Source: Carpediemonas membranifera BICM (lineage: Eukaryota; Protista; Fornicata). From it: a stretch of 64,000 nucleotides of DNA. Below, piece after piece: positions 14,004-51,084 of this stretch. Within the stretch, counting starts at the first letter, position 1. Every line of letters begins with the position of its first letter. The position numbers and the translations under genes were made by a program. The notes under the pieces are model-generated. The model was not told the DNA's origin. It saw only the letters and a program-made list of their open reading frames with translations, and did not search any database. The DNA lies in the NCBI GenBank assembly GCA_019828565.1, contig JAHDYR010000015.1, positions 504,239 to 568,238 of the forward strand, in the 5' to 3' direction.

Positions 14004-14021
14004 AACGTGGAATACTAGTAT

Positions 14022-17270: not shown

Positions 17271-17274
17271 CAAC

Positions 17275-17485: not shown

Positions 17486-18396
17486 AAAGAAAGAAAGAAA
17501 TTTATGGTGCTTGGATTCTGACCCCGGACTGAGCTTGTTTCCCGTTGTCTTGGAGCTGAGTGCCCCGGGGTACTGCCTATTTCCCGTGGCAAACTGGTCA
17601 GCAGCGTTTGCCTTGGGCTTTCGGTGCTACTGTCTCCGCGGAAAGCCGATTCCAATCGCCCCAGAGGCCCTGCGGCCATCTCCGTGCAAATATGCTTTCC
17701 TGTCTCCCTGAAAGTCCGGCAACTATCCGGGGAGCCTGGGGGTCTGTCCTCGGGGCATTGACAGGCAGGATCGTCCTGCAGAACCTTGACTATGACACTC
17801 CTTGCTTCCCTGCAGTCCTTGTAGAGCCGTTCAGCCACGGCACCCTCTCGTCTGTCCGGTTCCCCAATTCCATGCCCCCTCGACTCTGTTAAGAAGCCTA
17901 CCCGAAGGCGGGGAAAGTGACTAAGTCCATGCTGTCTACCCCGGTTAGGTGGCGTGGGTCAGGGCATGGGTGGTGTACCCCCAGGCACTAGGCCTGGTTG
18001 TCCTGTTACCCCTTACAACATTTCGCTTGCACTACATGTCCTTGGTTTCCCATGTCGTTAACAAGGGCGGCAGGGGCACCTGTGCCCCTCCGACCCCCGT
18101 GGCCAGTCCCTGCAGTTTCCTTGGGGTCCCAACGAGTGGTGCAACCATATGAATATGGATTTCCTTGACCTTATCCTTGCTCTGTCCTTGTTGCATGTCC
18201 TTTCTTTCTTATTTCTGGTCTGTCCTTCCTGTTATTTCCTTGCAGTCGTTCCTTCCCTTGCTTTGGTTCCTGGCTACCGGGATACGTGGGGCCTTTCCTC
18301 ACTGATCCCAGGAGCTTAGCACCAGCGAGGGTGGTCCATGGCTGATTCCTTGTCCATCCCTTCCCGGTCCTGGAGTCAGGGGTTCATGACATGCTT

Positions 18397-21300
18397 CTAT
18401 TCCACCTTGAAGCTGTTGTAAGCCTTTGCCAGTTCCCGTAGTCCTGCCGTGAGGCCTTCCCAAATGTCCTCCGAGCCCCATATTATTAGTTGCTGTAATT
18501 CTAGGATGGGTCTTTCCTGGTACCATTCGCCCTGGGGGCCCTGCCTTACTTCCAAGTCCTTAGTTTTGTGCTTCGCTGCTGTCCACAGCTTTGTCCAAGC
18601 TTCTCCCCTGTCTACTGCCGGGCATTCACAGATTATGTGCGCTGCCGATCCTAGCCTCTGGCCCTCTGCCCACTCCCTGATCATTTCCTGCTTCCTTGCT
18701 GGTCCTGGCTTTTCCCTAATGATCCTGTAGAACAGGCTCACCTCCGACTCCTCCGAGCATAGGGGGCATAGTCTGCTAATTTCTCTCTTCAGGTCAGCGC
18801 CTTGGGCCAGCTCTGTGATGGCTCTCATAGGGCCCTCCCCTCTCTCTGCCGACGATGGGGATGGGCTGACATTGGCTGCAATGGATACAATTCTCTTCCA
18901 TTCCGCCCTGCTTTGCCCCTTCCCAGCCTTTCGGTCTACCGTAGGCTTACCTTGCAGACACTTGCTTAATTTCCTTGTCCCCATGATTTCCATTAGTCCT
19001 AGTGCCGTACGGCTTTTGCACCGCTTCATCCACCCCCTCCTGATCGTTTCCATGCCATAATCCAGTAGCGCTGGTTTAGGGGCTCCCTCTCTGGTGCCCT
19101 CCAGTAGATGCTGCACTCTCTCCCTAGCTTCCCACATAACCGTGCCCCGCCCCCATTCTCTGTTTCTGACTGGTATATCCTGGTCCCTGTAGTTGACTAT
19201 CCTTTTGACTGCCAGCCATTCCATGTGTGCCTGGAGGTCCACCCATCCATTCATCAGCCTCATGGCTGCGCCCCCTCCCGGTCCTGTTCCTGCCATGATT
19301 CCCTGCCAGTCATTCCAGATCCTTCTACCTCCCGGTGCGTTCCCCCACACCTCGACTCCGAAGAGGATCCTGGGCCATATATATATTTCCAGTAGTAGCC
19401 TGCTCGCTAGTGCTGGCATGTTTGCCCTGGTCCACCCTGCCCATCTCACCAGTCTCTTGTACCTTTCGCTCTGCTCCTGTTTCCGCCTTATGCAGGCCGA
19501 CATAGGGTCCTTCCCACTTGCGATCCATAATCCCAGGTATCTCGCCTCCTTCTCTGGCAGTAGTGTTACCCCCTCGATCCTGACTAGGGCTGTTCTGTCC
19601 ACGCTAATCATTACATTCTTCTGGGCGTTCACCCTCATTTCATGCTCTCTGATTATGTCCACCATTATGTTGGCGACCATCTGGCTATGCTCCGGTTTGC
19701 TCCCTGTGACCGCAGTGTCATCCACAAACATGGTAAGTGCTGCCGGTAGTCGGTCGCTGAGGTGGCTCGTGGTCCTTGGCGGTTCTCTGATGTCGTACCG
19801 TTCTCCCTTGATTTTCTTTCTGGCCAGGTGGGGCCAGTTAGCCATGAACAGCACAAACAGTGTCGGTGCCAGGACGCACCCTTGCTTAACTCCCCTGTTG
19901 GTTCTTTCCCATGCCTTTGCCCCCTTGACTGATATCCAGGTTTCCTTTATTGTGCCTTGAATTGCCCTGATCAAGTGCTCCTCCACCCCCATACCCTGTA
20001 GCTTATCCATGAGAATGTCCCTTGGTACCGTGTCATATGCCTTCTCGATGTCCAGAAAGATTGACGTGGTCTCACCCCCTCCTGGTGCCGCTGCACAATG
20101 TACTGTATCTGCTGGATGACGTCCCTGTCTGACTGGAAACCAGCCTGTTCTCTTGGTATGAACCTTTTCGTTGCTGCTTCCAGACGTATCTTGAGCAATC
20201 TACCATAGACCCTGTACAGCAGTGGTGTCAAGGATATTGGTCTATATGATTCCGGCTTGACCCTTGGCTTCCCTGTCTTGTGTATGGCCGACACTGTGGC
20301 ATACTTCCATGCTTTGGGTACGTCGCCCTCCCTGTAGACCCTGTTGATGAGCCTCGTCACTTCCCTAAGGCCTTTCTCATCCAGCTCTCTCAGCATGTCT
20401 CCAGATGTGAGGTCAGGCCCTGGTGCGGTGTCCCTCCTGATCCTTTTGATTGCGGCTTTGACCTCGCTTTCCTTGAACTCATTTCCGTCCCTGCCCCTCC
20501 ATGTCTTCCAGGTGGGTTCCCTGCCTCTGCTGACTCTAGCATACTGTTGCAAGAGGATCTCGCTGATGGCCGCCTTGTCCGTGGTTATCACTCCGTCCTT
20601 GAGGAGGCTCTCCGGCATTCCCTTGTATTGGTTGTCACACCACCACCTTCTGATGGCAGCTTCCACTGAGGCCCTTGAGGCCCTATACCCCCTTTTTGCA
20701 CTTCTGCTGATGTCGGCCACCCATTTGGCCCTGCGCTCTCCCCAGTATTTCTCCAGCTCCTCTTTCATCCTTTCCTTCCTGGTCCTGTTGCCTATTTCTG
20801 TCCATGGGGTTCGCTGGAGTTCGCTCCACACTCCGTTCCCGAACACTTTGTCCCTTGCCTTTGCTCCCCTGTTGTTCACTGGGTCGCCCATGCATGCTCT
20901 TATAGTCTCTTCCCATTGGTCCGAGCTCTTGATCCTGTTCAGCTTTGAGACTGTGACTGGCCCCTCCTTCTTTTTCATGGGCCAGGTGTGCACCTCGGGT
21001 ATGGCCAGAGCCACGTCTCGCTCACTTCTGCCATAGTACCGTTGTTCCTTCCATGCTAGTGTGATTCCATTGTGTGCTGAGCCCCATACCCCGACCTTCT
21101 GAGACTCTACCACCTCAATCTCCGCCCCCTGGATTCCTGGTGTTGTCACTGCAAAGTCCGGGGTTGATGTTCCTGATGTGAGCGTCCCAGATTTGGGTAT
21201 GATGGCTTTGAGCCTGTGCTTCTCCATCATATCCTTCCACCGGGTGGATCTTTCCATCTGGCCTGGGTCGATGTTCCAGTCTCCCATAATTATGGCCTCC

Positions 21301-22171: not shown

Positions 22172-23395
22172 TTACTCCTCCTCCGTGGACTCCCCACTGC
22201 CGCTGCAGCTGTCCTCGGCCTGACTCACTTGCTGTCCTTGTAGACTCTGCATTACCGTGATGAACTGGGTCATCAGGTCCATGGGTGAGATCTGCTTGGC
22301 CTTCTTAGCCTTCTTGTGCTTGTGCCGGGGGATCGTGGGCTTCTCCTTGCTGGGCTTAGTCGCGACGCCGGAGAGCACCAACCTTCCGTGGCCTTGCTCT
22401 TGCATGAGTCGGGCAGCCTTGAGCGCTGAGATCTCTTGTTGCGCCTCTGCCAACTGCTTTCGGAGCCGCAGCTTCTCCGAGTCCATGCCGGTTGCCTGTC
22501 TGCTTCCAGACTCCCAGTCCATGTCCTCTTCGTGCCTGCTTCTCTTTCCGCTGTCCGAGTCCATGATCCTACTCGTGCTGCCCTCCTTGCGCTTGAGCGT
22601 CGTGGAGGAAGAGTGATCCTTGCTGTTGTCCATGCCTCCCTCTGAGCCTCTACCGGCCCAGGTGTTCCCGCTGAACGAGCCTCTCATCTGCGTTCCCGTG
22701 TTGTCCTGTCTCTCCCTGTCGTCTCCTCCGTGGTTACGATCCGAGGTCCTGTTCATGTTACCAGCTCTGTCGCCGGTTCTGTCGTCAGCTCTGACACCAG
22801 CTCTACCGCCGGCTCCGTGTCCTACCCTTCTGTCCTCTTCCCCGTCTCCATGCTGGTCGTGATGTCCTTGATCCGCGTCCTGGCCGAAGTGCCTGCCCAC
22901 CATCCTGGTGCTAATCCGCCTCGCCTTTTCCTCCAGGCCGTTGTCGAAGAACCTACTTTGGTATGGCTGTTCGGACTTTCCGTCGATGGTGGGGACATAC
23001 GTGATGCCTGGGACATTGACTGTGTTGGCTCTGGGCTCGTCCGGGATAGCTGCCGAGACTAGTCTGGCCCCTTCCTTGCGCATGCGGCTTAGGATGGTCC
23101 CAGCCTCGCTGACCCTGACCATGCCCCAGTCTCTCGGGATGAAGCTCGCCCCTAGGGTGATCCTACCCCTGTTCCTGGGGGCCTTGACGTTGACTATGAC
23201 CTTCTCATAGTCCCTGAGGCTCTCTGCTAGGTCGTCGCAGCCCCAGACTCCTTGATGAGCCGTAGCCTCCTTCGAGGGCCACCACTCGTATAGCATGGCC
23301 ATGGTTATGATGTCCTCCTCCCTTGCTGCCCCTAGGCCCTTCCTGACGCGTACCATGCGGAGCTGGTTAGCCGTGGCTCTTCCATGATGGTCCAT
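22172..23395 (-). CDS. LINE-B ORF1 C-terminal part (low complexity, coiled coil, basic tail)
   Basis: 407-aa ORF overlapping the upstream ORF; LRKQLAEAQQEISALK. Confidence 0.6.
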   Translation of the reverse strand: MDHHGRATANQLRMVRVRKGLGAAREEDIITMAMLYEWWPSKEATAHQGVWGCDDLAESLRDYEKVIVNVKAPRNRGRITLGASFIPRDWGMVRVSEAGTILSRMRKEGARLVSAAIPDEPRANTVNVPGITYVPTIDGKSEQPYQSRFFDNGLEEKARRISTRMVGRHFGQDADQGHHDQHGDGEEDRRVGHGAGGRAGVRADDRTGDRAGNMNRTSDRNHGGDDRERQDNTGTQMRGSFSGNTWAGRGSEGGMDNSKDHSSSTTLKRKEGSTSRIMDSDSGKRSRHEEDMDWESGSRQATGMDSEKLRLRKQLAEAQQEISALKAARLMQEQGHGRLVLSGVATKPSKEKPTIPRHKHKKAKKAKQISPMDLMTQFITVMQSLQGQQVSQAEDSCSGSGESTEEE

Positions 23396-24825
23396 AGCGG
23401 GCTTCTCTCCAGTACACCTTCGTTGTCCATGATTGTGAGGGGGGGCAGTAAGATGCCCTTCATGCCCAACAGAACCTCCCCGAACCCGAAGCCGATGCCG
23501 AAGCGGTGTCCGTTGTCCGGGACTACGAGGATCCTGTCGCCGACTTCCCTGCTGACGTCCCTTGCGTCCCCGATCGGGTACGTGCCGAAGATCTCAAAGG
23601 TGTCCCTCCTTGTCGCGAATTCCGGGCCTCCCATGATATCCATGCCCGGCTCCGCCTTCCCGACTGCTTCCATGGTCTTGTCGAGTGCCTTACCCATGTA
23701 GTGGTAGACGTCTGGGGTGCTCATCCTCTCCTTGCATAGGGCCCTGATCCTGGCTGTGAAGACTACTGTATCCGCCAACCCACAGTGGTAGCAACCCGCG
23801 GTGTGTCTGTGGTACGGACAGACTCCCTTGGGCTCGCTCCTGTTCTGCCATCCATTTGACCATGTTGTTACTGCTTCCAGGTAGTTGGCCTTGTCGAGGT
23901 TGTCCCTGAGGTTTTGGCCAGCCTCCTCCTTGCCGTTTTTCTCCAGGATCTCTGGTAGCTTCTTCTCGTCCACCAGCCTAGCTTGGAAGAATTCCCTGGT
24001 TCCTTGCTCCAGTCCATTTGTGGGGTTCGTGAGGAGGAAGCTTTCCATCTCCACCCCCTTTGCATACATGATTATCTTCCAACCCTCCGACCTTTCGATC
24101 CTTGCCAGCTGAGCCGCCAGGCGGTTGGCCCAGTCCCTGAAAGTATGTATGTGCTTCTCATACTCGATCGGCGGCCGCCCCGTCCCGACCTCCACGAAGG
24201 TGGCCGGCGGCAGCCCCGTCACTGCCCATGCCGTGTACCTCGCTTGGTCCATGCTTGCTGCCGGTATGTCCTGGTAATACAGGCCATGCCCGTGTCCAAG
24301 AATGTCCCCAGTGCTGAGGTCAAAGAGTACGATCCCGCCCTCAACCGGGATGGCAGGGATCCCTGCCTTCTTGACGCCAGGGTCTGCGCACTCGAAGTCG
24401 ATGGCTCCGATCACCAGTCGTTTCTCCTTGTCCTTTCTAGGCATCCTCGGCGGCTGGCTGCTGACCTTGTTTGAGTCGACCTCCTCGTCCTGGTCGATCT
24501 TGCCTTGGTTGGCCCCGACCATGTCCTTGTTCACTTCCAGGAGGCTGTCGTCGAGGCTTCTTCTGCCGGGCATGGTGGCCTGCTGGCGTCGTTCCTCCTT
24601 GTCCTTGACATGTTGCTCCTCGTCTCCGTCGATGACCGTGCTAGCGGACGACCTGTCCAGATCGGCATGTTCGTCCCTATTGCTGCGGACCGAGGTGGCC
24701 TTGAGCACTTCCAGCCTCACCTTCCGGAACGGCGGCTCGTTGCTAAGGGGGTCTCCTCCCCTTCGCCCAGGATATTGGTTCTGCCCTTCAGGTAGATCCC
24801 TGACTTGTTCCATGCTGCCTGCCAT
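23332..24825 (-). CDS. LINE-B ORF1 middle part containing a Maelstrom-like DEDDh/ECHC nuclease domain
   Basis: AIDFEC...IPVEGGIVLFDLSTGDILGHGH...AVTGLPP...YAKGVEME...CPYH...YHCGLAD. Confidence 0.75.
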   Translation of the reverse strand: MAGSMEQVRDLPEGQNQYPGRRGGDPLSNEPPFRKVRLEVLKATSVRSNRDEHADLDRSSASTVIDGDEEQHVKDKEERRQQATMPGRRSLDDSLLEVNKDMVGANQGKIDQDEEVDSNKVSSQPPRMPRKDKEKRLVIGAIDFECADPGVKKAGIPAIPVEGGIVLFDLSTGDILGHGHGLYYQDIPAASMDQARYTAWAVTGLPPATFVEVGTGRPPIEYEKHIHTFRDWANRLAAQLARIERSEGWKIIMYAKGVEMESFLLTNPTNGLEQGTREFFQARLVDEKKLPEILEKNGKEEAGQNLRDNLDKANYLEAVTTWSNGWQNRSEPKGVCPYHRHTAGCYHCGLADTVVFTARIRALCKERMSTPDVYHYMGKALDKTMEAVGKAEPGMDIMGGPEFATRRDTFEIFGTYPIGDARDVSREVGDRILVVPDNGHRFGIGFGFGEVLLGMKGILLPPLTIMDNEGVLERSPLWTIMEEPRLTSSAWYASGRA

Positions 24826-25559
24826 ATGGCCGGGGCCTCCGGTGTCTGAAGCCTGAGGATGTCCCTAGCCTCCTCCATGAAGCGGCTGATGGACCATGCT
24901 GACGTGTCGCTTAGCTCTAGGATGACCCTGTACTTGCCGTCCTCTTGCTCGTAGGCCACTCTGGTGACCGGGCCTTGGTTTGCCGGATCCCATACCTTGT
25001 CGTAAGGCACGCCTTCTACGGCCTCGTCTCCATGAGCCCCTGATACCAGTATGAACGACCCTTCGGCCTTCTTGACGCTGTCCCTGTCTACATCCCATTC
25101 GATGGGCCCATCTTCCTTCGGCTTGAGGATCGCCGTCTCGATGTCCTTCTCAGATGGCCATCTTGCCATGCCAGTGAAGCCCGCTTTCAGCGTCTTGGGC
25201 TCCAGTGCCTGTGCCATGTCCTTTGCTTCCTCGTCTCTGGGGTTGAGCGCCTCTGTGAGCATGTAGAAGAGGTCGCGGAGGCCGTGGATGCCGCATGGGT
25301 TCCTGAGGATGATGTCCTTGTTGTCAGTGACGCCGGTTGCGAAGAGGATGCGTCTGGCGTTCATGATTACTTCCTTGCGTCCTTTGGAGTTCGCATTGAG
25401 CGACTTTCCTGTAAACTTGCCTGTTCTACGAAGAAGTAGAGTCCTTGAATCGTTCCTTTCAGCGAGGAAGCTGTCCAGTAGTTCCCTGATGTCCTCCCAC
25501 TGCTTCTGCGTGGAATCCCTGATCCTTGTCGGTATTTCTACCTGCATTGTTGAGTGCAA
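24717..25559 (-). CDS. LINE-B ORF1 N-terminal part
   Basis: 280-aa ORF at the same position as LINE-A 640-1926, weakly similar. Confidence 0.55.
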   Translation of the reverse strand: MHSTMQVEIPTRIRDSTQKQWEDIRELLDSFLAERNDSRTLLLRRTGKFTGKSLNANSKGRKEVIMNARRILFATGVTDNKDIILRNPCGIHGLRDLFYMLTEALNPRDEEAKDMAQALEPKTLKAGFTGMARWPSEKDIETAILKPKEDGPIEWDVDRDSVKKAEGSFILVSGAHGDEAVEGVPYDKVWDPANQGPVTRVAYEQEDGKYRVILELSDTSAWSISRFMEEARDILRLQTPEAPAIWQAAWNKSGIYLKGRTNILGEGEETPLATSRRSGR

Positions 25560-26149: not shown

Positions 26150-26297
26150 ATCAAAACGTGGAATACTAGTATTGTGGTTCGTTTGACGAACTATGTTTAC
26201 AAGAGGAGAAGACTCGACACAATGGTGTCGAGGAGAAACTCCTTGACTAACTAATATCATATATAAATCTGTGTAATCTTGGGTGAGACCCATGACA
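26150..26297 (-). repeat. Second copy of the G1 LTR + leader, fused to the LINE-B 5' region
   Basis: 148 bp identical to 13999-14146. Confidence 0.9.
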
Positions 26298-26576
26298 CCC
26301 CCGCTGAACAGGCTTCGTCGTGTCCGAGTCCACCAATGCTGCAGACAAGCTCGCTCATGGTTCGCCATTCGCAGCCACATGGAGGCAAGGCACCAATTCC
26401 ATGCCACGGCGGCGGTGGTGCGCCTCTTCCAGGAGCTCGTTGACGAGATGTGGCAGTACGTCAACGATTATACGGCTTTGGCATGGGACGAAGAGTCTGG
26501 GGTGATGGTTTGCGAGTTGGCAGACATGGGTGAGGAGCTTGTTTGCTGCATTTGCGGTCATGCACGCGCTGAGTAG
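26298..26576 (+). CDS. 3' part of an unknown gene interrupted by the LTR
   Basis: Open frame with coding-like composition ending CCICGHARAE. Confidence 0.35.
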   Translation, partial: PPLNRLRRVRVHQCCRQARSWFAIRSHMEARHQFHATAAVVRLFQELVDEMWQYVNDYTALAWDEESGVMVCELADMGEELVCCICGHARAE

Positions 26577-26699
26577 TGAGTAAAGGAGTTTTATTGGTCA
26601 GTACATCCCATTTGGTGTGTTTCCCCCAACTACCAATTTTTTTTTCAACATTGGTAGTTTCACAATTTTCACATTACGTCACTTGTTTGGTGAAAAACA

Positions 26700-27624
26700 A
26701 TGGAAACGCCACTTCCGACATGGCTGACGATGAATTTATCGCAACACAAGGCCTATATTCAATATGTCAAGCTTTCAGACAAGTCTGAGCTCTTGCCGTC
26801 TGTCAGGGCCTTCTTCAACAGAGATCTGGCGACTTCGAACCTCGACTGTCTGAACTACTCATTCGTCATGTATGTCAGACCCACTACACTTCTTGTTAAC
26901 ACAGTCTCATCGCAATTCGTGGGGTTGAGATGGACAACATCAAGGCTGCATGCCTTCTCTTCCGCGAGTCGTACAGGGAGGGGCAGACCCTGAGCGGACA
27001 ACTGCACCAGGAGCGGTTTGTCATCGGCTTACGGACAGCCGTCTCCTGCAGAGGTCTTGGGTTCGCGAGGGTGCTTCTTAGCATAGCATCTGCCGAAGAA
27101 CTCGTCCGACTGCAGTGCGACAAGCGACTCCAGGACATGTATGCGTCCTTTGGCCTCAAGGAGTCATCGGACCCGTCGCAGGTCGAGCAGCTGGTGGACA
27201 CGGGGGCAACCCACTTGCCATTGTCACGATGGAGGGCACGATGGGTCCCAACAAGTGGACCAACCTCGGCAAGAGCCTGACAGAGTGCTGTGGGATGATA
27301 ATGCAAGGCTCTACGTTGATCCGCGTGACCAACCATGGTAATAGACTTGATCAGCACGCTCATGGGATGCCTGCTTCCGACAAGAGGAGTGTTGACTCGT
27401 TCGTGGAACGCACCCGTGTGTCCGTGCGCCGTGAACGTGCGGCAAAACAGCCTAACGTCACCCGCATCAGGCAGAAGTTGATGATTATCCGCCATTACAA
27501 CCTTCGTTCTTTCACGCTGGTCAAAGAGATCAAGGAAACGAGGACCGAGATGCGTAAGGAGAAGAAAGCCAACTTCTGGGACAGTGAATGGAATATTTCC
27601 GTTGAGGATGACGAAGAAGTGTAA
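26700..27624 (+). CDS. GNAT-family acetyltransferase (intron 26870-26904; frameshift near 27205)
   Basis: Removing the 35-nt GTATGT...TAACACAG intron joins ORF 26700 in frame to ORF 26930; motif A LRTAVSCRGLGFARVLL and motif B MYASFG. Confidence 0.7.
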
Positions 27625-27648
27625 ATGAAATGAAAATAAAACAAGAAT

Positions 27649-28410
27649 TTATAGCTCCTGTGCCGAACACTCTAAGTAGTAATTCATGATGGCTTGGTAT
27701 ACCTTGCGACGCAGCACATCACGCGATTCTGCCTCAGCACGTTCCGCATTCCGCTTGGCAATGACAGAAGTGAGCTGACTGAGTGTCTTAGCCTCCTTCT
27801 TCAGAACTCTGGTGGGTCTGGCGAAGATGAGATCCGCGTCGCGGTCACGGCAAGGCTTGCTCAGGACGAGCTTGACGTCATCGACCGTCACACCGCACGA
27901 TGAAGCAGCGAAGGCATGGACCTTAGCCCGGTAGGCGATGGGAATGCGGTGAAAGGCATCATCCATCTCGCGGACAGTCGCGATGAGTGGGTCGTCCGTG
28001 TCCAGCTCATCTGTCTGGGCGTCAAGACTGAGGAGAGCCTTGAAGCGGTGACGCTTGTCCTCATCACCGCCTCCCTGCCACTTGCGGCTGATCTCTTCGA
28101 CCGACTGGAGATTGCCGTAGAGCTTGTCCTTCTTCAAGGAGGCTACTTTCATTTTAGGGACCTCGGCGGCAAACTTCTGGCTGAAGTCGACAACCCATCC
28201 GTTTGCGCGGGTAATATCGTCATTATTAAGGAGGAAATTGCTGATAAAGGTCTGAACGATCTCGATGGGCGTCTTGTGAGCTTTTCGGGCTGTTTTCGTG
28301 GACTTGTTGGACTTGCTCTGGCTCTTTTGCTGCGCTTTCTTGCCAAGAGCCATTCTCCTCTCCTTTTGAGCTTCAGTGGCCTGTATATTGCCTTGTTTAC
28401 TTCTTGCCAT
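27649..28410 (-). CDS. Unknown 253-aa protein with a histone H3-tail-like N-terminus
   Basis: MARSKQ...KSTKTARKAHK vs H3 MARTKQTARKS. Confidence 0.75.
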   Translation of the reverse strand: MARSKQGNIQATEAQKERRMALGKKAQQKSQSKSNKSTKTARKAHKTPIEIVQTFISNFLLNNDDITRANGWVVDFSQKFAAEVPKMKVASLKKDKLYGNLQSVEEISRKWQGGGDEDKRHRFKALLSLDAQTDELDTDDPLIATVREMDDAFHRIPIAYRAKVHAFAASSCGVTVDDVKLVLSKPCRDRDADLIFARPTRVLKKEAKTLSQLTSVIAKRNAERAEAESRDVLRRKVYQAIMNYYLECSAQEL

Positions 28411-28736
28411 CGTTGTTTCCTTAAAATGCGTGTGAAAATGTGAAATGAACTGTGACTCTCGACATTGCTGCGCAGCTATGGTATTCCAACGGCACAGAAC
28501 GGGTTTATAGCATGCATATGATCCATTCTGGTGCCTTTATCCTCTATAACCAACATCAGTCCATCAAAAATGAATCTTGCAACAGAATACTCATCCACAC
28601 GCATCGAGAACGAAAAAGAAGCATATAACCAACATCAACAACCTAATAGAAGGCTGCATGCAAGCGTAGAGCTCTCCTAGTCAATTCTTCATTTTCACCA
28701 CCATCGATCTCCACGTCAGGATGAAACCGTGCGCCC

Positions 28737-28892
28737 AAAAGCTCAGAGATGCCGTTATAGATGATATAACGACGTCTCTGAGCTTTTCAGCGATTTCAGT
28801 TTCTGGCCATGGATAAGCTACAAATCCTGTCAATGTTGTCCTCAGAGGACACTGAAAAATTTAATCTGTGTCCTCTGAGGACCAAATTGACA
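28737..28892. other. Two long imperfect palindromes in a divergent intergenic region
   Basis: AAAAGCTCAGAGA..GTTATA gatga TATAAC..TCTCTGAGCTTTT and TGTCAA..GTCCTCAGAGGACAC-15nt-GTGTCCTCTGAGGAC..TTGACA; one arm recurs at ~29075-29094. Confidence 0.85.
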
Positions 28893-29138
28893 AAATCGAA
28901 AATGGAGCGATGAGATGCCCATCGAAAAACGGCCAAAAACAGCGCAGGTGCAGAATGAGCTGAAAATCGGCCAAGGGGGTAGCTCTTGGGTCTTTATGGC
29001 TGATCGGAGGTATTTACATGACAGCTGGCAATATTTATTGAGATAAAACGTATTTCATTTTTTCGAGAAAGTCTTCTGAGGACCAAATTGACAATGGTTA
29101 ACGAAGACATCATCTCTCTCGGCAAACTGAAGGAGACA

Positions 29139-31271
29139 ATGCTTGCTCCTGACGATTCTGGTATGTCACTTTCATTTTCACGGTCCTATTTACACAGATG
29201 ATTCATTCCGTGCATACGACGCCCTTTCGTCCACAAAGAGCCGTATAACCTGGCTGCAAGATCACGGCATCGTCTCTGATGACCCTCTGTTCTTCGTTTG
29301 CGTCCGTCTGATCAGCATTCGTACGATCAACGTTGTTTTCGGGTTCCCGTTGAAGCGCACTTTAAGCCAGCACGTTCACGACTATGGAGTTGCCAAACTA
29401 CGCGCGATATGTGACGCAACTAACCGCAACTACCTCTGCGAGGTCGACTTTGACTCTCCCGACACAATTGAGGCATTCCGACGGAAGTTTTGTGACCACT
29501 TCACCGCCAAATCTGTTCATAAGGCTCTAGTCGGCGTCGACTCGCTCCCTGTTGAGAAGCAGGTTGAGATTTACCGCGCATTCCACCTTGTGTTGCGCCA
29601 CAAGGACTCGAAGAAACTCGATTCTCGTGTTCCGGCAGGCCAATTTGGCCAGTTTATCGCCCACGCCCAGCTCAGCAAGAAGCTGTCCTTCGCTGGCTCA
29701 GAGAAGCTGGCCGAGGAGTTGGCTAAGATCGGTTCGCTCGATCCGTCAGCTCCTCTGAAGAGGAAGATCGCTCGTCTTGAGAAGGAGCTCGCCTCATCGA
29801 CTGCTGCTCTGATGAAGGTCCAAGAGGAGTTAGTCCGGGCCCAGGACCACTCAGCAGCAGCCACCAAGCCTTCTGCCGTCGTTGCTGCCCCTCAGCCGCT
29901 TCCGGTTGTCGACGCAGAGTCCACGACACACGATGAATTTTCCGACACTGACGAGTCCGAGTCTGATGACCACTCTGAACCGGCCGCCATGCAGGGTGAC
30001 GGCGTTCCTTTGCCCCAGACTGATCAAGACATCGACGTAGAGTCTGATGTGGACGACACAGACACCGTTGGTTCTCTCCTTCAGCAGCTAGACGACACCA
30101 TTGCAGGCCTTGATGATGTCCCTGAGTCTGTGCGCTTGTTGGAGCAGTACGAGCCCCTTGATAAAACGGCTTGCTGAGGAGAGGGAGGCGAGGGAGGCGC
30201 TTGAACAGGCTAACAGAGAGTCTGAGGAGTCCCAGAAGAGACTTGAAGCTGAGTTAGGTCAGCAGAAGGCCGAGGATCAGGCGATCCATCAGTTTACTCA
30301 AGCAGAGTTGGCACGCGCGAGTGAGGCTGGGCTTGAAGCGCTCGCCGATGAACTCGAGGACAACTGGGCTGAGCTTGTCAGGCGCGCCGAGGAGGCAACA
30401 GTGGAGCTTGACCGCTACGTTCCTCTCGCTGCCTTGATGGTACTGTTCCAGAGGAACAATGTGACTGGAGCCTTATGGACTCGGATCAATAGCACCATGA
30501 TGAGGTACGGGGGCCAGAAGTTCATAACGGTCCCACCTCTCGACCTCGGTCTGTCGCCAGAGATGAAGGCTATCATCAAACAGCACTCTCCGACGCCTGC
30601 CAATGTTCCCCCCTATGCAGATATACTTACGGAGCGACGTTGATAGGCAGAAGTACATCGACGTGGAGTACGACAAGGTAGGCGAGCGAGTTCTCAAAGA
30701 TCGTAAGAGTTGGCGGAAGATTGCAGTCAACCCGGATGGATTGTGCATCGGCTACTGCCTGCAGAAGGTTGAGAATGGCGAGTTCGACAAGAAGTTTGCG
30801 GCAGAGGAAGTGGCAGCAGTGAGGGAGGAGGTGCGCGCCTGGGGATTCTCCGATGCTGGCGAGAGGCTGAGGCTTGAGACGTCTAACGTGTTCGTGCCCA
30901 CCCTGATGTTCGACGATGCCACTGATTGGTACAGCAACTTTGGTGTCATGGCCTGGTCAGCTCTGAAGAGCAAGACTGTAGTCGTTATCTGGGTCAAGAT
31001 GCTGACGTACCATGACAAGTATATTGTGCGGATGCATTTGACGGAAGTTTATGAGTCCGGCATGGTCCGGCGTGGATCTGATGAAGATGTGGCTGCGGCG
31101 CAAGCTATTGTGGTCGTCAAGGATGAGCATGCGACGCTATTTGTCCGCAAACGTTCAAAGGGTGGTAAGAGAAAGGCTCATACGACTTATATCAAGCGCA
31201 AGGCAGTCGATAAGGATCGCGAAAAGAGAGTTGTTGATGCCGAGGACGTTAAGCGTGGAGTTCCCGAGTAA
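29139..31271 (+). CDS. Coiled-coil protein with C-terminal OTU-like cysteine protease (intron 29161-29197; homopolymer frameshifts near 30155 and 30610)
   Basis: The 37-nt GTATGT...TTTACACAG intron restores frame from ATG 29139; IAVNPDGLCIGYCL Cys motif, W-box DWYSNFGVMAWS, His in KDEHATL. Confidence 0.65.
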
Positions 31272-31298
31272 AAAAAGAGATGTTTTGACATTTTTAAT

Positions 31299-32108
31299 TC
31301 ATTTCTTCCGCTTCTTGAGTGCCGGATACTGCTCCAGGAACCTTGTGAGATAGTTTGGATGAGAAATGGGCAGACTCGGGAACCTAGCAATGGTTAAGAC
31401 CTCACCCGCATCAAAGAAGATCTCGCCGTAACTGATACGAAGAAACTCTTCGGCCTGAATGACGTTCGTCGACTCAACCGCAAGGACTGGAAGGTCCTTG
31501 AGCAAACGGTTGGTGAACTGGCAGTTGGTGTCACTCTCACTGTGGTTGATGAGGTGTACACCAATGCCTTCACCTTCGCCGGCGTCGACGTGAATGTTGC
31601 TAGCGTCGAATGAAATGCTGTGTAAAGGCATAATGAACAATGAACAAACACCATGTTGCTGTTATTCGCGTGGTAGTCCTCGTCGGACACAATCCTACCG
31701 GCGTAAATGCCGAGGAGCTTTCCGGGCTCAATTGCGGCAGTTGCAATGAGGCCTCTACCCACGTCCGTGTGGTCGGGGAGCCAGACAAGGCTGCACCTCA
31801 ACGGCAATGGAGGGGTGGGTCAGCCGGGTGGATAACCAACTCGGGGGTTCGAGGGGAGGAAGGTCCTTCTCGGCCTCCTTAAGCTCCCTGATCGACTCCT
31901 CGGGAGTGTTTGGGTAGATCGCGGCGACCAGATCCGGATGCAGTGCCTGAGTATGCACAACGGATTCAATGATGGAATCTTCGCTTGAGGAATCCTCCTG
32001 AGAATCATTTGAAGGCGCAGACGGCGGCGTCTTGCCCGCAGTGGACGTAATGGGTATTCTGATACCCCCAGGCTGCGGCTTTGGTGGGAGCGCCTTTCTT
32101 CTCGCCAT
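31299..32108 (-). CDS. SET-domain lysine methyltransferase (intron 31618-31649; homopolymer frameshifts near 31810-31845)
   Basis: GRGLIA, IYAG, LINHS, FLRISYG; the 32-nt GTTTGT...TTTACACAG intron joins the two SET halves in frame. Confidence 0.85.
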
Positions 32109-32220
32109 CTGATTTTTTTTGCAAACGGACACGCGGTATTTCTCGGGATTGATGGGGCCGTCTCACACCGTAAAGGACACACATACAATATCTTATCTGT
32201 AACACCAGAATGCTTGCTTA

Positions 32221-33315
32221 TTGTGGTCCATATCCTTCCCTGCTGGTTCGGCCAACTACCAGTGTTGGAAAAAAAGTGGTAGTTGCCAAATGGAGAGGAA
32301 ATTTGGCAAATTCGGTACCAGACGCATCAGCGACCATCCTCTCACGTATGAATGCGTCTGTGGAATCACTAGGCCGCGTTCTGACCTTCGCAACCAGGGC
32401 CTGAAGGAATATGACGGAATCAGGTACACGCATGACTGCCCCTTCACCCTGAGCAAGCTTGTGAACCGCCGCATCGTTATCCTGCTCGAGCCAGTCCATG
32501 GCTTCGAAGCACCTACTTGTGCGAACCCGGTCTTCACTGTCACCGGGCTTGCTGGCTCCGAGGGGTACCACAAGCGCATGAAGGCCATCCTCGATCTCGT
32601 CAGCGACGAGTGGCTCACCACGGTTGCCGTCAGTTTCGTCTCGACGACCCACCTCGGCTCCATACTGCAACAGTTGGCTGCAGAATTCGCCAATTTCGAG
32701 ACATTCTGGGTTGTTTCTGGCCACAGCGAGACCACAACGTCGAGAATGATCGTTAATGCGAGCGCTAACGAGTTCCTGTACCTTCACGATATCGTACAGA
32801 TGATCCTCTTCGCTTTCCGTGAGCCATCCCTCGTCACCACCAGCCGGGTTCGGCTCATCTACTTCGCCACCTGTACCGGAGCGGACAATAGCGAGTTCTC
32901 TCTGCTTAAGCAGTCCATTTCGACCCAGGCATACGAGCATACGTGCATCATTCTCACTCCGGAGAAAATGCTTGCCAACGAACTCGTCCTGCAGGACTGC
33001 TTTTGGCTCTACCGCACTACATGCATGGACAACCCGCTCCACTTCGTCTCGCGTTACTTCTCCGGCTATGGGCTCGCACCTGGCACAGCAGGGAGACGGG
33101 TTATCGCGAATGGATCAATGTCCATAACCCCGGGCGCGATTGAGATCCTCACAGCCACTCAGTTCCGCACGCCAATCCCTCTTCCCGAGATGGTCGACCT
33201 TGTTTCTGAGGTACTTGCATATAGACCACTGCATAGATCTCCGGCGGATGTTATGGCCTCGCGCTACATTACTGAGATGACAGTTGCGCACAGAGCGGCA
33301 CTGGAAGACACTTAA
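32221..33315 (+). CDS. Putative caspase-like (clan CD) cysteine protease
   Basis: Hydrophobic strand-GH (FWVVSGHSE) and hydrophobic strand-C (LIYFATC) spaced like a clan CD His-Cys dyad. Confidence 0.5.
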   Translation: MWSISFPAGSANYQCWKKSGSCQMERKFGKFGTRRISDHPLTYECVCGITRPRSDLRNQGLKEYDGIRYTHDCPFTLSKLVNRRIVILLEPVHGFEAPTCANPVFTVTGLAGSEGYHKRMKAILDLVSDEWLTTVAVSFVSTTHLGSILQQLAAEFANFETFWVVSGHSETTTSRMIVNASANEFLYLHDIVQMILFAFREPSLVTTSRVRLIYFATCTGADNSEFSLLKQSISTQAYEHTCIILTPEKMLANELVLQDCFWLYRTTCMDNPLHFVSRYFSGYGLAPGTAGRRVIANGSMSITPGAIEILTATQFRTPIPLPEMVDLVSEVLAYRPLHRSPADVMASRYITEMTVAHRAALEDT

Positions 33316-33338
33316 AGTTCAAAATCTCCCTATTTAAC

Positions 33339-34560
33339 TTACTCAATTGGCTTCATATCCGCCACCTTCTGGTAGACAGTCATACACTGGTCGCAGAACC
33401 TGACACGATAGTCCTGGCCGTCGAGATGGAACTCAGCATAGCTGAAGTGTTTCTCTTCGCAGAACCAGTTTAGGCACGCCCGGCAGACGCCAGTGTCCTT
33501 TGTCGACTTGTCTCCGTCCTTGATACACGCGTGACATCTGTTAGACCTTCCTGCCAGACTGCAAGCTGCGCAAACCTTTCTGTTCTTACCATCAATCCTC
33601 TTCTCTCTGACACACTGAAGATGCATGAACTGATGGCAGAGATAGCACGTTTCATACTCGTTTCTTTTTCATGTTTGGGTTGAAGTACCATTCAGGTGAG
33701 GCACAAACAGCGCATGCGAACAGTAACTTACGCTGATATAGCTTCAGAAACGTCGCTTGCTTGAGGGCGGGGACCTTATCGTTCATTTCAACGGCCTTGG
33801 GTGACTGCTTGAGGAGATCAGTGACAGTTGTGGAGAGTGAAGCCGTCACCATCGCGGCAACCTCCTTCAAGTCAGCCTCTTCGAGCCTCGATCGCTTCTG
33901 AGCAGGCTCATGCATCTGCGCATCAAAATTAAGCTTCTTGACGGGGGAATCAGGCTTGATGGTAGCCAAGTCAGCTCTTTTTCTGAGCTTTGGTACCAAT
34001 GTTGTCACTGGAGTCTTTGTGGGTGTCTCTGCGGGTGTTTCTGCTGGGGTACGTGGCTCAGGCTGGAGCTTGCGATGCTTGATCCTGATTACAACGGCTG
34101 GAGGCCATTGAATGCCGGTGCAAGTGATCAGACTGGAGACATCGTGGAGTCCAAGTCCCCGAAACAGCACAGACATCCTGTTTCTAAACTCCTGCAAGTG
34201 TTCAGCTGCATTTGCTCTGTCTCTGACAACCAGGTAGGGTATCTTTGTGCCAATGAGCTCTGTGCCACCCTTTCTACTTGCCACAAATGCCTGAATGGGC
34301 TCAGTAGTCGTGCGCCTGACGGAGTTTGCAATAGCAATCTTGCGAAAGCCGTTGCAGAGGCCCGATATCACATCCTGCATGCCAAGGAGAGCGCGATGAA
34401 CGTCAGAGGTCGTCAGACCGATAGTTGGGATGTCCGCGACGTCGAAAAAGCATTCCAGGAAGCTAGTCACGAACAGCCGGCGGTACTCTGTTCTCTTATC
34501 CGATCCGCAAGACGTGCCCTGCGAAATCTCAGCTTTCTTCGCAGTTTCACTGGTCGTCAT
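33339..34560 (-). CDS. PHD-finger protein with a second Cys-rich finger (frameshift in A-run near 33665)
   Basis: One indel gives CAVC...CYLCHQFMHLQC...CAAC (C4HC3), followed by CHAC...CRAC...C...H...CDQC. Confidence 0.7.
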
Positions 34561-34630
34561 ATTCTCATCTTAAACTGCGCAGGTGTTGACGACAATGTTA
34601 CGGTTATCCACGAACGAAAGGCTTAATCAT

Positions 34631-34810
34631 ATGACCAGTTGCATCCATGAAGTCGGCAAGATACAAGATTCTGTTCGAGAAATACGAAATCACATCACTG
34701 GGCTGAATTGCGAGGGGTTGGTGAATGAGAGGCTGAATGACACACAACACGTTCTGGAAGAGATAGGAGATATGTTTATAGATGTAATACAGCAACTTAA
34801 AGACCACTAG
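34631..34810 (+). CDS. Small coiled-coil ORF
   Basis: Amphipathic heptads; divergent from the PHD gene. Confidence 0.3.
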   Translation: MTSCIHEVGKIQDSVREIRNHITGLNCEGLVNERLNDTQHVLEEIGDMFIDVIQQLKDH

Positions 34811-35082
34811 CACGTTATTATCACTTTGAATAAGCAATGAATGGTTATGCAACATCAGCACCTACCTACGAATCACAAGAATGCCCCTAGCACGTCGTAT
34901 GCAAGCAAAAATGAGACTTACCCGTACCTTCCGCACGTTTCTCTACGTTTCACAAACGTTGGTGAAACGTGTGAAATAGTGAAAAAGATACGGGTGAATC
35001 TCATTTTTTCTTGCAGTTTCTTGTGCAAAAGGGTGTTTATCCTCCGTATATCCCCGGATTAACTGGCCATTCTAACAGTATG

Positions 35083-36707
35083 TCTACTGGAGGGCACCAG
35101 AGAGGGAGCCCCTAAACCAGCGCTACTGGATTATGGCATGGAAACGATCAGGAGGGGGTGGATGAAGCGGTGCAAAAGCCGTACGGCACTAGGACTAATG
35201 GAAATCATGGGGACAAGGAAATTAAGCAAGTGTCTGCAAGGTAAGCCTACGGTAGACCGAAAGGCTGGGAAGGGGCAAAGCAGGGCGGAATGGAAGAGAA
35301 TTGTATCCATTGCAGCCAATGTCAGCCCATCCCCATCGTCGGCAGAGAGAGGGGAGGGCCCTATGAGAGCCATCACAGAGCTGGCCCAAGGCGCTGACCT
35401 GAAGAGAGAAATTAGCAGACTATGCCCCCTATGCTCGGAGGAGTCGGAGGTGAGCCTGTTCTACAGGATCATTAGGGAAAAGCCAGGACCAGCAAGGAAG
35501 CAGGAAATGATCAGGGGAGTGGGCAGAGGGCCAGAGGCTAGGATCGGCAGCGCACATAATCTGTGAATGCCCGGCAGTAGACAGGGGAGAAGCTTGGACA
35601 AAGCTGTGGACAGCAGCGAAGCACAAAACTAAGGACTTGGAAGTAAGGCAGGGCCCCCAGGGCGAATGGTACCAGGAAAGACCCATCCTAGAATTACAGC
35701 AACTAATAATATGGGGCTCGGAGGACATTTGGGAAGGCCTCACGGCAGGACTACGGGAACTGGCAAAGGTTTACAACAGCTTCAAGGTGGAATAGAAGCA
35801 TGTCATGAACCCCTGACTCCAGGACCGGGAAGGGATGGACAAGGAATCAGCCATGGACCACCCTCGCTGGGTGCTAAGCTCCTGGGATCAGTGAGGAAAG
35901 GCCCCACGTATCCCGGTAGCCAGGAACCAAAGCAAGGGAAGGAACGACTGCAAGGAAAGAACAGGAAGGACAGACCAGAAATAAGAAAGAAAGGACATGC
36001 GACAAGGACAGAGCAAGGATAAGGTCAAGGAAATCCATATTCATATGGTTACACCACTCGTTGGGACCCCAAGGAAACTGCAGGGACTGGCCACGGGGGT
36101 CGGAGGGGCACAGGTGCCCCTGCCGCCCTTGTTAACGACATGGGAAACCAAGGACATGTAGTGCAAGCGAAATGTTGTAAGGGGGTAACAGGACAACCAG
36201 GCCTAGTGCCTGGGGGTACACCACCATGCCCTGACCCACGCCACCTAACCGGGGTAGACAGCATGGACTTAGTCACTTTCCCCGCCTTCGGGTAGGCTTC
36301 TTAACAGAGTCGAGGGGGCATGGAATTGGGGAACCGGACAGACGAGAGGGTGCCGTGGCTGAACGGCTCTACAAGGACTGCAGGGAAGCAAGGAGTGTCA
36401 TAGTCAAGGTTCTGCAGGACGATCCTGCCTGTCAATGCCCCGAGGACAGACCCCCAGGCTCCCCGGATAGTTGCCGGACTTTCAGGGAGACAGGAAAGCA
36501 TATTTGCACGGAGATGGCCGCAGGGCCTCTGGGGCGATTGGAATCGGCTTTCCGCGGAGACAGTAGCACCGAAAGCCCAAGGCAAACGCTGCTGACCAGT
36601 TTGCCACGGGAAATAGGCAGTACCCCGGGGCACTCAGTTCCAAGACAACGGGAAACAAGCTCAGTCCGGGGTCAGAATCCAAGCACCATAAATTTCTTTC
36701 TTTCTTT
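35083..36707 (+). mobile_element. 5'-truncated copy of LINE-B (ORF2 C-terminus, 3' UTR, tail 36693-36707)
   Basis: Near-identical to the reverse complement of 17486-19107. Confidence 0.93.
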
Positions 36708-36924
36708 GCTCCAGCTGACTGACACCTCAGCCACCTATGGTGTGGTGGACGTTCTAGAACATTTCGAACTCTATTCGAGTAACCATCTGCGGGAGTCATT
36801 CGTCCTACTCATCCAGTTCGCTGGCTACCCGTTGCCGTCGCTGACCTTCCTGACAAAGGATCTTTGTAACACCGTACCTGTTACCCTCTATTTCAACGAT
36901 CATAATTTGTGGCGTTGAGTTGAG

Positions 36925-37996
36925 TTGTTGACAAGGCTGCCCTGACCCTCAAGGCCATCGCCGACTTCAGCGAGGATGTCGGTGCGGAGGGTGTTGGCCC
37001 GGCCCTGTCGATGATCAAGTTCTGTGTCCTCCCCAAGATTGCACACTTGATGCGTAATGTCGATCCCACCCCCGAGGTGCTCACTCCCGCAGAGACCTTC
37101 TGCCAGTCCACCCTATCCGACGTCGTTGGGAAGGTGCTTGGCCGCACCCTGTCGCCAGACATCAGTCAGGCCTTGGGGCTGCCGGCAAAGCATGGTGGCC
37201 TGGCTTCGCGATGCCCACTATCGTCTGGCCGTGTGCCAGGATTGGTGCCCTGCGCCAACTTGCACGGTACGGGGAGAAGCATGGCCTTCCTGCCACCCTT
37301 TCCACGATCAGCGAAGGTTTCCAGCACCTCACAACTGGTTGGCCAGTCACCGAAGCCCAGCTGCTGGCCCTGCCTGAGAAGACACAGGCACACTTGTTTG
37401 ACAAGATAACTACCAACATGACCAAGGAAGCTCGTGTCGACACAGCGCAGCCCAGTGTGCTAAGCCGCGCGCTGACTGCCGACCCCCTTCGCAGTCACGA
37501 TCACACAACGAGCCTTCCAGGTGTCCCGCTGCAGGCGGCCCTCAGAAAGCACCTCGGGCTTGCTGCCTTCGTGTCCGCGACTAAGTTCTGTCCAATCTGT
37601 GCCCTGAAGTCAGTAACCAATGCGGCATCAGGCCAGTTGAACGTCGGAGCTGACCCCCGCCACGTGTTGGCCACCCCAGAGCATATGGTGACATGCAAAT
37701 GCCTTCACGGAGGAGCCAAGACCACCGCCAGGCACGACACGATCGTCGAGAGTCTCTTCTCGGAGCTCTCAAACAACGGTGTCCCTGCCAGGAAGGAGTT
37801 CTGGCCCCGCCACTCCTCCCGTTACACGAAAGACCCCGACACAACGCACAGAGACGCCCGAGTTGACGTCTTCGCGTTCAACGACCGCGGCACGAACCCT
37901 ACGGCCATCGATGTTGTGGTCTCGAACGAGTACCACGACACGGCTCGGAAGAAGCGTGAGCGGTACGCCCCGTGGAATGTTGATGTGATAAGGTAA
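36925..37996 (+). pseudogene. CRE-clade RLE fragment (copy of 16197-17270)
   Basis: Same translation, with CCHC-RHD-D..D-K motifs. Confidence 0.75.
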
Positions 37997-38231
37997 GGTA
38001 AGGTAAGCCACAACAGACATTCTTTGACGCGGTCTCTCGAGGAGACGGTCGGTTTGGGCTCGAAAGCGTGCCTGCAAGCCATTCCACTATGCTCGTTGCC
38101 GGTGGGATATCCCCGTTGGGTAGAGCAAGTATGTCTAGAGGCTAGGACAGCTAGCTGGCGCTTCTCCGTGAGCACCACTCGAGCCCATTGGCACCCGGGG
38201 TGCTGAGACGCCCGAGAGGGCGCACGGAAAC

Positions 38232-38813
38232 GTGCAGTTTATGGCATCAGAATTTCGAATGCCCGAAGGCACATCGGGCACGTCCGCAGAACCTCCTGTA
38301 TCCCAGGAAGAGTTCCGAAAGTTTACCAACAACGTAACTGCCACATTGGAGTTCATGAAAACGAAGATGGAGAACATCGAGGAAAGATCCATCCAGAGGG
38401 AGGTAGAACAAGAAGAGTACGAGCTAGAAACCGATGAGCAAGCAACCCAGGGAACCTTCCAAGGCTTTCCGTCCTTCTTGTTCGATTTGGAGCTCCCCAA
38501 GAGGTACGGGCCCCGCGACGAAGCCAAGTTCCTACGCGAGATCATGCGTCTCCTGACGACCGCGGACCCGCACTCACTCGACGTGAACGATCTACTGCTC
38601 CGTCTCCTGAGCCGGTTCAAGGTCCTTCTCCTCAAGGACGACTACGACGACAACGTCTGTGACTACGCCACTGCAGCCCTGCGAGCCACGCCCCCGAAGT
38701 CTGAGATGGAGATCGAGACGATCCTCGCTAAGGCCAAGACTAAGGGCAAGCGTAAGCGTCGGAATTTTCAGGAGCAGGGCTCCAGCAGCGTCGGCCGCCG
38801 GGCCCGCTCCTAA
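38232..38813 (+). CDS. PAT-1 gag-like ORF1
   Basis: Position; EAKFLR motif shared with PAT-2 and PAT-5 ORF1. Confidence 0.7.
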   Translation: MQFMASEFRMPEGTSGTSAEPPVSQEEFRKFTNNVTATLEFMKTKMENIEERSIQREVEQEEYELETDEQATQGTFQGFPSFLFDLELPKRYGPRDEAKFLREIMRLLTTADPHSLDVNDLLLRLLSRFKVLLLKDDYDDNVCDYATAALRATPPKSEMEIETILAKAKTKGKRKRRNFQEQGSSSVGRRARS

Positions 38814-45676: not shown

Positions 45677-45744
45677 TGCATATCATCGATATGTAAGCTA
45701 TCACGCCTCGGGCGTGGCTCACGCCCTGACACTGCTGGGTCAGG

Positions 45745-51078: not shown

Positions 51079-51084
51079 AGCTGT

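Follow-up and report, generated by a model that had tools for sequence, protein, structure and literature searches.

A multicopy gene block in Carpediemonas membranifera as a possible accessory module of a large mobile DNA element

Layout and transcription of the gene block

We have analyzed a stretch of 64,000 nucleotides from the metamonad Carpediemonas membranifera (contig JAHDYR010000015.1, positions 504,239 to 568,238), hereafter the window, with a focus on a block of eight genes at positions 26298-34810, hereafter the island. Nearly all of the window is mobile DNA, and retroelements border the gene block on either side. The island encodes, from left to right, the fragment of a gene with cysteines and histidines (gene 1), a predicted GNAT-type acetyltransferase, a protein with a tail like that of histone H3, an OTU-like protease, a SET-domain protein, a caspase-like protease, a PHD-like finger protein and a short helical protein. 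A previous reading of the sequence alone had described about eight tightly packed genes, several in divergent pairs, and this holds: once introns and frameshifts had been read through, 87% of the island was genic, with three divergent pairs (H3-like/OTU-like, SET/caspase-like and PHD/short open reading frame) and with spacings of 23-27 nt between convergent genes. As had also been noted, there is no housekeeping gene among the genes of the block.

In the raw list of open reading frames (ORFs), the genes are interrupted by single-base frameshifts at homopolymers and by short introns with a terminal ACAG. At least four such homopolymer breaks are present in the window’s copy, and the breaks differ in other copies. 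Transcripts were sought in the contigs of four coded public runs, which represent two samples at most and of which X1 and X2 have identical tables and form one data set; no run is recorded as RNA, and their RNA origin is a guess. In the contigs of all four runs, the SET gene appears without its 32-nt GT-AG intron and without the extra base at 31775, and the extra base at 33665 in the PHD gene is absent in three of the four, the fourth run having no coverage there. The spliced joint indicates that the SET contigs derive from mRNA. Furthermore, the database protein J8273_8451 continues across both breaks of the OTU-like gene. Since the breaks are lacking in the contigs and in J8273_8451, we consider them to be errors or decay of the window’s copy, and since the contigs are spliced at the SET intron and lack two of the island frameshifts, intact copies exist and are transcribed. 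Contig pieces were also recovered from the H3-like gene (27700-28366), the 3′ end of the OTU-like gene, the PHD gene and the short ORF. These runs gave no contig coverage for gene 1, the GNAT gene and the caspase-like gene, which is no sign of silence. At 32110, 2 nt before the SET start codon, the 5′ end of the gene carries 24 loose letters in one contig of run X4, and these could be a library adaptor or a spliced leader.

Predicted proteins of the island

The SET-domain gene (31299-32108, minus strand; intron at 31618-31649, frameshift at 31775 in this copy) contains the motifs GRG, INHS and ISYG and lacks the post-SET cysteines. The two exons correspond to different, complementary portions of PF00856, namely positions 1-37 (E 0.025) and 48-105 (E 0.0035), with scores of 15.4 and 18.2 bits, each below the cut-off of 22.4 bits. 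In NCBIfam, both halves match only the profile of a SET-bearing bacterial effector, far below the cut-off. The GxG, NHS and catalytic-tyrosine motifs and the profile match that define membership in the SET domain family are thus all present, making lysine methyltransferase a good prediction, and the role of a “writer” among the island proteins is fairly supported. In being short and lacking post-SET cysteines, the protein resembles vSET of the virus PBCV-1.

A second putative writer is encoded by the GNAT-fold gene (26700-27280, plus strand), which has a motif A-like RGLGFA sequence and a predicted 35-nt intron at 26870-26904. The protein matched GNAT clusters in the ESM Atlas at 0.92 (nearly all of the 30 matches were GNATs, with only 142 of 256 features shared), and the nearest clusters were small bacterial GNATs, not Gcn5. 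No GNAT match was obtained in Pfam or NCBIfam, and the assignment as an acetyltransferase is a fair one. A 131-codon ORF that overlaps the end of this gene (27229-27624, plus strand) may be a gene of its own or, if there is a frameshift near 27203, may encode the C-terminus of the GNAT protein.

The PHD-like gene (33339-34560, minus strand, about 407 codons) encodes a C-terminal C4HC3 finger, followed by a FYVE-like one. The C4HC3 pattern extends across a frameshift that this copy has at 33665. The match to PHD_4 has an E-value of 0.0056 and 17.1 bits versus a cut-off of 30.6, and the second finger matches Vps27 FYVE with an E-value of 0.58. We consider the PHD finger a fair prediction, and a role as “reader” among the island proteins is moderately supported.

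In the OTU-like gene (29094-31271, plus strand, about 700 codons; predicted 37-nt intron at 29161-29197; this copy is frameshifted near 30155 and 30608), an unrecognised N-terminal domain is followed by an acidic stretch, a coiled coil and C-terminal OTU-like motifs (NPDGLC ... H). The family PF02338 is defined by an Asp-Gly-x-Cys loop and a late histidine in an OTU fold, and neither Pfam nor NCBIfam gave a profile match. In the ESM Atlas, the protein matched a mostly viral cluster at 0.81, and OTU, the sole family named, was assigned to 19% of its members, which is a weak lead. The motifs weakly suggest an OTU deubiquitinase, or “eraser.”

The H3-tail-like protein of 253 amino acids (27649-28410, minus strand) consists of a basic N-terminal tail and a body without a recognised fold. 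The tail has 14 lysines or arginines and two aspartates or glutamates in residues 2-46, and starts with ARSKQ directly after the first methionine, one residue off the start motif of H3. The probability of an AR[ST]K at the start by chance is about 6e-5 with the composition of the island and about 6e-4 with that of the tail, for a motif that was picked post hoc. The basic tail and its first residues weakly suggest a histone-tail “decoy.”

The caspase-like gene (32290-33315, plus strand) encodes a putative protease of 341 amino acids with an N-terminal CxC...HxC motif and a caspase/CHAT fold with His145 and Cys195. The structure was modeled with AlphaFold2 from a 12-row alignment (pLDDT 47.9), and a Foldseek search with the model gave 55 matches at E<=0.001. 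Among the 35 matches listed, 33 were caspases, CHAT proteins, MALT1 or FLIP and two were Raptor/TORC1. Three of the five viral matches in the BFVD at E<=0.001 were caspases, which took the top ranks, and the other two were vWA proteins. His145 follows the strand at residues 137-144 and Cys195 ends the strand at residues 187-195, both residues being invariant across the three subfamilies described below; a histidine and a cysteine at the ends of two core strands, seen here in a model of low confidence, are the mark of the caspase-hemoglobinase fold of clan CD. The protein matched no Pfam, NCBIfam or PDB profile and so falls outside the Peptidase C14/CHAT families as defined by sequence, and the model makes the caspase fold a fair prediction.

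The remaining genes lie at the two ends of the island. Gene 1 is a 3′ fragment of 92 codons taken from the ORF list (26298-26576, plus strand), to which no significant family was assigned in the Pfam, NCBIfam or PHROGs profile scans and for which a weak search found no longer homolog at E<=0.01. The short ORF (34595-34810, plus strand) encodes a helical protein of 60-71 amino acids and is covered by contigs at 34590-34784. PHROGs yielded nothing convincing for 14 proteins, and none of the 10 window ORFs used in an exact look-up was matched.

Copies of the island elsewhere in the genome

The caspase-like protein had three relatives among 1972 candidates, all of which are named Carpediemonas membranifera. 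In GenBank, it is represented by 18 accessions in three subfamilies, corresponding to clusters of 8, 8 and 2. The subfamily that holds the window’s copy contains 8 accessions at 99-100% identity, and the other two, exemplified by J8273_5060 and J8273_4495, are 52-58% (8 accessions) and 46-54% (2 accessions) identical to it. Overall, members of one subfamily are mostly 99-100% identical, as compared to 46-58% for members of different subfamilies; lower values within groups stem from truncated or fused gene models. The H3-like protein belongs to a single cluster of 6, with J8273_3984 being a 99% copy, and a search of the OTU-like region against 1.84 billion representatives gave a single match, which is a cluster of 4. 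These copy numbers refer to the caspase-like, H3-like and OTU-like genes. The pattern of 8, 8 and 2 accessions with near-identical copies suggests separate recent bursts of diverged element families.

The genes are ordered as in the window at three other loci, with proteins that differ from those of the window or lack its breaks. Thus, J8273_3981 (caspase-like) and J8273_3984 (H3-like) are three tags apart, the same as in the window, J8273_6718 (OTU-like) adjoins J8273_6719 (H3-like), and J8273_8451 (OTU-like) is separated from J8273_8453 (caspase-like) by one gene. Linkage was judged from the spacing of locus tags. The copies are unlikely to be alleles since C. membranifera is predicted to be haploid (PMC8516963). 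In the model of J8273_4980 (P0014), 26 residues of a retroelement ORF, located at 58019-58096 in the window, are fused to a caspase-like gene of the second subfamily, which indicates that copies of this subfamily have also been struck by insertions.

Relatives outside C. membranifera were found for none of the caspase-like, H3-like and OTU-like proteins. Likewise, four queries against the viral contigs of IMG/VR gave no relatives, and metagenome contigs and prokaryote genomes gave none for the caspase-like alignment, in scans that detect close relatives only. The presence of single-copy host orthologs without linkage, which would have spoken against the sequence-only reading, is excluded by genes that are multicopy and linked and that lack relatives outside the species.

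It could be argued that the copies are assembly artefacts and that the genes are a chance group of orphans, and the homopolymer breaks, at least four here and different ones in other copies, are indeed typical of long-read errors. However, the copies are located on contigs of many sizes and have their own substitutions, they belong to three diverged subfamilies, and the run contigs deviate from the window at fixed positions, all of which makes artefacts highly improbable.

Non-coding features

An 8-bp inverted repeat of AACTACCA and TGGTAGTT, with a spacer of 15-16 nt, occurs twice in the window as compared to zero occurrences expected from 100 shuffles. The first, AACTACCA-N16-TGGTAGTT, lies upstream of the GNAT gene (26628-26659) and the second is located 5 nt before the start of the caspase-like gene (32254-32284). 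Two imperfect hairpins of about 28 bp each are situated between the divergent H3-like and OTU-like genes (28732-28892; z -9.4, none of 200 shuffles equally stable), and a 20-nt motif of the second hairpin is repeated at 29075-29094, just before the OTU-like start codon (three matches versus zero expected). Yet another long imperfect hairpin (34875-35030; z -9.25, none of 200 shuffles), which has partial contig cover, lies just beyond the interval of the sequence-only reading. No Rfam family was identified at the gathering score for the island hairpins, with weak hairpin-type matches below it. The inverted repeat and the hairpins may be binding sites for a regulator of the element, origins or precursors of small RNAs. 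The end signal of Helitrons is a short hairpin, whereas the hairpins of the island are internal and of lengths that exceed this signal.

Genomic setting and borders of the island

The retroelements of the window include two LINE-type elements, Ty3/gypsy-type elements and several elements of the tyrosine-recombinase (DIRS) type, and there is also one Tc1/IS630-type transposase gene and one tRNA-Leu gene. The GC content of the segment at 26298-35082 is 0.515, as compared to 0.572 in both flanks, and no further low-GC fragments tied to the island were found across the 64 kb. To the left, gene 1 is cut by a 148-nt Ty3/gypsy-type terminal sequence (26150-26297) that is identical to 13999-14146, the end of an element with Ty3/gypsy-type domains at 10065-14039. 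To the right, the segment at 35083-38239 is an inverted, 99.3% identical copy of 15962-19108 (3.1 kb, retroelement ends). Both ends of the island have thus been overwritten by retroelements, just as the sequence-only reading had proposed. This duplication covers the ends of more than one retroelement and may be a recent duplication, a 3′ transduction or an effect of the assembly.

One of the run contigs is identical to 35043-35083 and then continues with 193 letters that are unlike the window, and this continuation has no match within the window. The island is therefore a cut fragment, as another copy runs on past 35083 with a different sequence, and the mobilising genes would be located past the two retroelement insertions.

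An alternative possibility is a host gene cluster, passively spread by segmental or subtelomeric duplication, or a domesticated remnant that serves the host, neither of them being itself mobile. No mobilising gene is visible for the block, the window includes the near-perfect duplication of 3.1 kb, the genes have host-type spliceosomal introns and are transcribed, and three caspase-like accessions (J8273_8665, 8671 and 8674) are found within ten locus tags on one contig. On the other hand, the three subfamilies, which are 46-58% identical to one another, all have near-identical copies spread over different contigs and lack orthologs elsewhere, which suits element families better than a single duplicated block, and the density of genes and the repeated disruptions by retroelements fit dispensable element DNA. 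We consider passive spread to be improbable.

A few other features of the window were observed. The low-GC stretch at 57380-57790, between retroelements, contains a truncated ORF of 96 codons and could be a remnant of the host or of an element. Both LINE-type elements contain an ORF with an “IDFE” motif upstream of their endonuclease and reverse transcriptase genes (23335-24864, minus strand, and 1713-2642, plus strand), which by eye resembles a DEDD exonuclease, unusual for a LINE, and has no Pfam match at E<=0.001. One tyrosine-recombinase retroelement begins at the 5′ end of the tRNA-Leu(AAG) gene (45595-45730, minus strand), which may indicate targeting of tRNA genes. Identical 40-nt direct repeats (49770-49809 and 51603-51642) bracket the Tc1/IS630-type element (50064-51610), and a DIRS-type element starts after each of them, possibly reflecting a specific target site. 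The Tc1/IS630-type element itself has imperfect terminal inverted repeats of 37 nt and a second ORF on the opposite strand with a Cys/His motif. Finally, ORF pieces at 16200-17135 (minus strand), 37058-37993 (plus strand) and 59939-61381 (minus strand) resemble by eye the non-LTR retroelements with restriction-like endonucleases and have no Pfam match.

Discussion

We propose, with a probability of about 0.55, that the multicopy genome segment of which the block is a fragment serves as an accessory module in a large DNA mobile element or endogenous virus, and that its enzymes are likely to act on chromatin. The copies and their linkage make the first part of this proposal, which the sequence-only reading had also put forward, likely. 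The mobility of the element is very probable, since three diverged families, each recently amplified, are found in one species and are gene-dense and repeatedly struck by retroelements. Given mobility, it is probable that chromatin is the target, since SET, GNAT, PHD-like, OTU-like and basic-tail genes are present together; of the five domain calls, four or five are for families that modify proteins or read chromatin. The caspase-like gene, taken alone, is not a chromatin gene.

Several observations weigh against this proposal. The curated Pfam cut-off was reached by none of the 17 ORF pieces that were covered by the scan, and the failure of the domain calls, which would have contradicted the sequence-only reading, is thereby partly realized; the SET call is nevertheless good, the caspase and GNAT calls, the latter fair like that of the PHD finger, were rescued by other methods, the OTU call stands at the level of motifs and the H3 tail was recognized by eye only. 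The first 60 residues of the H3-like protein, in which ARSKQ and the basic tail are plainly present, retrieved no PDB sequence with phmmer at E-values up to 10. A single-sequence model of the OTU-like protein (pLDDT 42.5) gave no match to a fold; OTU folds are unlisted and not thereby excluded. For the low-confidence model of the caspase-like protein, VIA-align did not single out caspases, with SAVED-CHAT ranked fifth (Z 8.9, root-mean-square deviation 4.8, 185 aligned) and tied with generic Rossmann-like alpha/beta folds. The run contigs show several differences from the window and may derive from other copies; the transcripts cannot be assigned to this copy. The second and third subfamilies showed no counterpart of either the H3-like or the OTU-like gene, and the full gene set is shown for one subfamily only; clustering at 50% could mask an OTU-like counterpart. 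As already noted for transposase and capsid in the sequence-only reading, the part visible in the window (26298-35082, ends cut) contains no transposase, recombinase, polymerase, capsid, terminal repeat or target duplication of the island, which leaves the class of the element between transposon and virus. Finally, histones are not the sole targets of proteins with SET, GNAT, OTU and caspase folds, which act on other proteins as well.

The last point opens up for another interpretation, namely that the genes are cargo of a mobile element or virus and that the enzymes are general modifiers of non-histone targets, involved in ubiquitin signaling, innate defense or the maturation of element proteins, in which case the chromatin theme is partly pattern matching. 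Nucleocytoviricota commonly encode caspase-fold proteins and deubiquitinating enzymes (PMC10583209), and viral caspases were the top matches of the caspase-like model in the BFVD (three of five). The OTU/Ulp1 proteases of the Ginger1 transposons have been proposed to function in DNA repair or transposition (PMC2836005). Moreover, the closest GNAT clusters are those of small bacterial GNATs, and the H3 mimic found no support in searches. However, the SET domain, the PHD-like finger and the N-terminal ARSKQ tail jointly point to chromatin, with a chance of 6e-5 to 6e-4 for AR[ST]K in this post hoc comparison, and we regard general modifiers as somewhat unlikely.

How does the proposed chromatin-related module compare with known elements? 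The Ginger1 DNA transposons share an OTU or Ulp1 protease, sometimes a PHD finger, and introns with the island, but are 2.6-7 kb in size, with the domains fused to one integrase-like transposase (PMC2836005). In the island, the domains are located in separate genes over more than 8.7 kb, with SET, GNAT and caspase-like genes added and no transposase among them. The Helentrons and Helitrons are likewise large DNA elements with an OTU-like protease, cargo and hairpins, but the OTU of Helentrons is a domain of RepHel (PMC6431247), whereas the island has no Rep or helicase in the window, its ends being missing. In the KDZ transposons with TET/JBP cargo, an epigenetic enzyme is encoded by a separate gene, but the cargo modifies DNA bases (PMC12730594), and no KDZ transposase was found in the island. 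The VANDAL elements, which are Mutator-like elements of Arabidopsis, encode anti-silencing proteins and have short non-coding motifs; however, VANC is a sequence-specific DNA-binding protein that acts on DNA methylation, whereas the island encodes predicted protein-modifying enzymes with a merely hypothetical role against silencing.

The Nucleocytoviricota, with their endogenous forms, have compact genomes rich in orphan genes and encode caspases or metacaspases, deubiquitinases and histones (PMC10583209). The island differs by having no core gene (major capsid protein, polB, A32 ATPase, VLTF3) in the window, where only 8.8 kb of the element is visible, by the lack of relatives in IMG/VR, and by its spliceosomal introns and many near-identical genomic copies. 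The marks of cut-and-paste transposons (DDE transposase, terminal inverted repeats, target-site duplication) are absent from 26298-35082, where both ends are cut off, and those of Polintons/Mavericks and Polinton-like viruses (protein-primed polB, integrase, packaging ATPase, capsid, long terminal inverted repeats) are absent from the window, which lacks the ends.

The C. membranifera genome paper reports four Geminivirus-like Rep genes and helitron-related genes, all unexpressed, and contains no block of this kind in the parts searched, among them nine of its ten supplements (PMC8516963). Genomic elements with HerA/FtsK have been reported in Carpediemonas, without linked cargo (PMC10853773). 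These HerA/FtsK elements and the Geminivirus-like Rep and helitron genes are candidate partners of the island. Carpediemonas is not named in the main text of a survey of endogenous dsDNA viruses, the supplements of which may list it (10.1101/2025.04.19.649669). The literature examined, mostly open-access, contains descriptions of single cargo domains (Ginger1, Helentrons and giant viruses), with no mention of this block or of the set together in one element.

If the proteins indeed act on chromatin, the following scheme can be envisioned. The host RNA polymerase II would transcribe the divergent pairs from shared promoters that bear the inverted-repeat motif. The PHD protein may read or anchor on nucleosomes, the SET and GNAT proteins would write lysine marks, and the OTU-like domain would strip ubiquitin. 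The basic protein with the ARSKQ tail might soak up host readers of H3K4 or pack the DNA of the element, and the protease may mature element proteins or, as a counter-defense, cut a host restriction factor. The net outcome would be that the element is kept expressed, with the predicted enzymes setting the chromatin state of the element or the host. A viral SET protein can also repress host genes, and the marks could act in either direction.

A bolder hypothesis, which we consider unlikely in its entirety, is that the island belongs to a new class of giant DNA elements with three active subfamilies, in a metamonad without canonical replication machinery. Such an element would carry a self-contained chromatin kit of methyl and acetyl writers, a reader, a ubiquitin eraser and a histone-tail decoy in the form of separate, co-regulated genes, with the caspase-fold protease as a conserved core gene, and its own open chromatin domain would have been colonised by retroelements.

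The chromatin or ubiquitin enzymes of known mobile elements and viruses occur one by one. If our interpretation is correct, a recently amplifying element with many separate and expressed chromatin genes would allow the escape of selfish DNA from histone-based silencing to be tested directly by means of small recombinant enzymes, and this in a lineage in which the control of chromatin is little known. It would also imply, as a caution, that some of the annotated orphan genes in the C. membranifera genome are the cargo of such elements.

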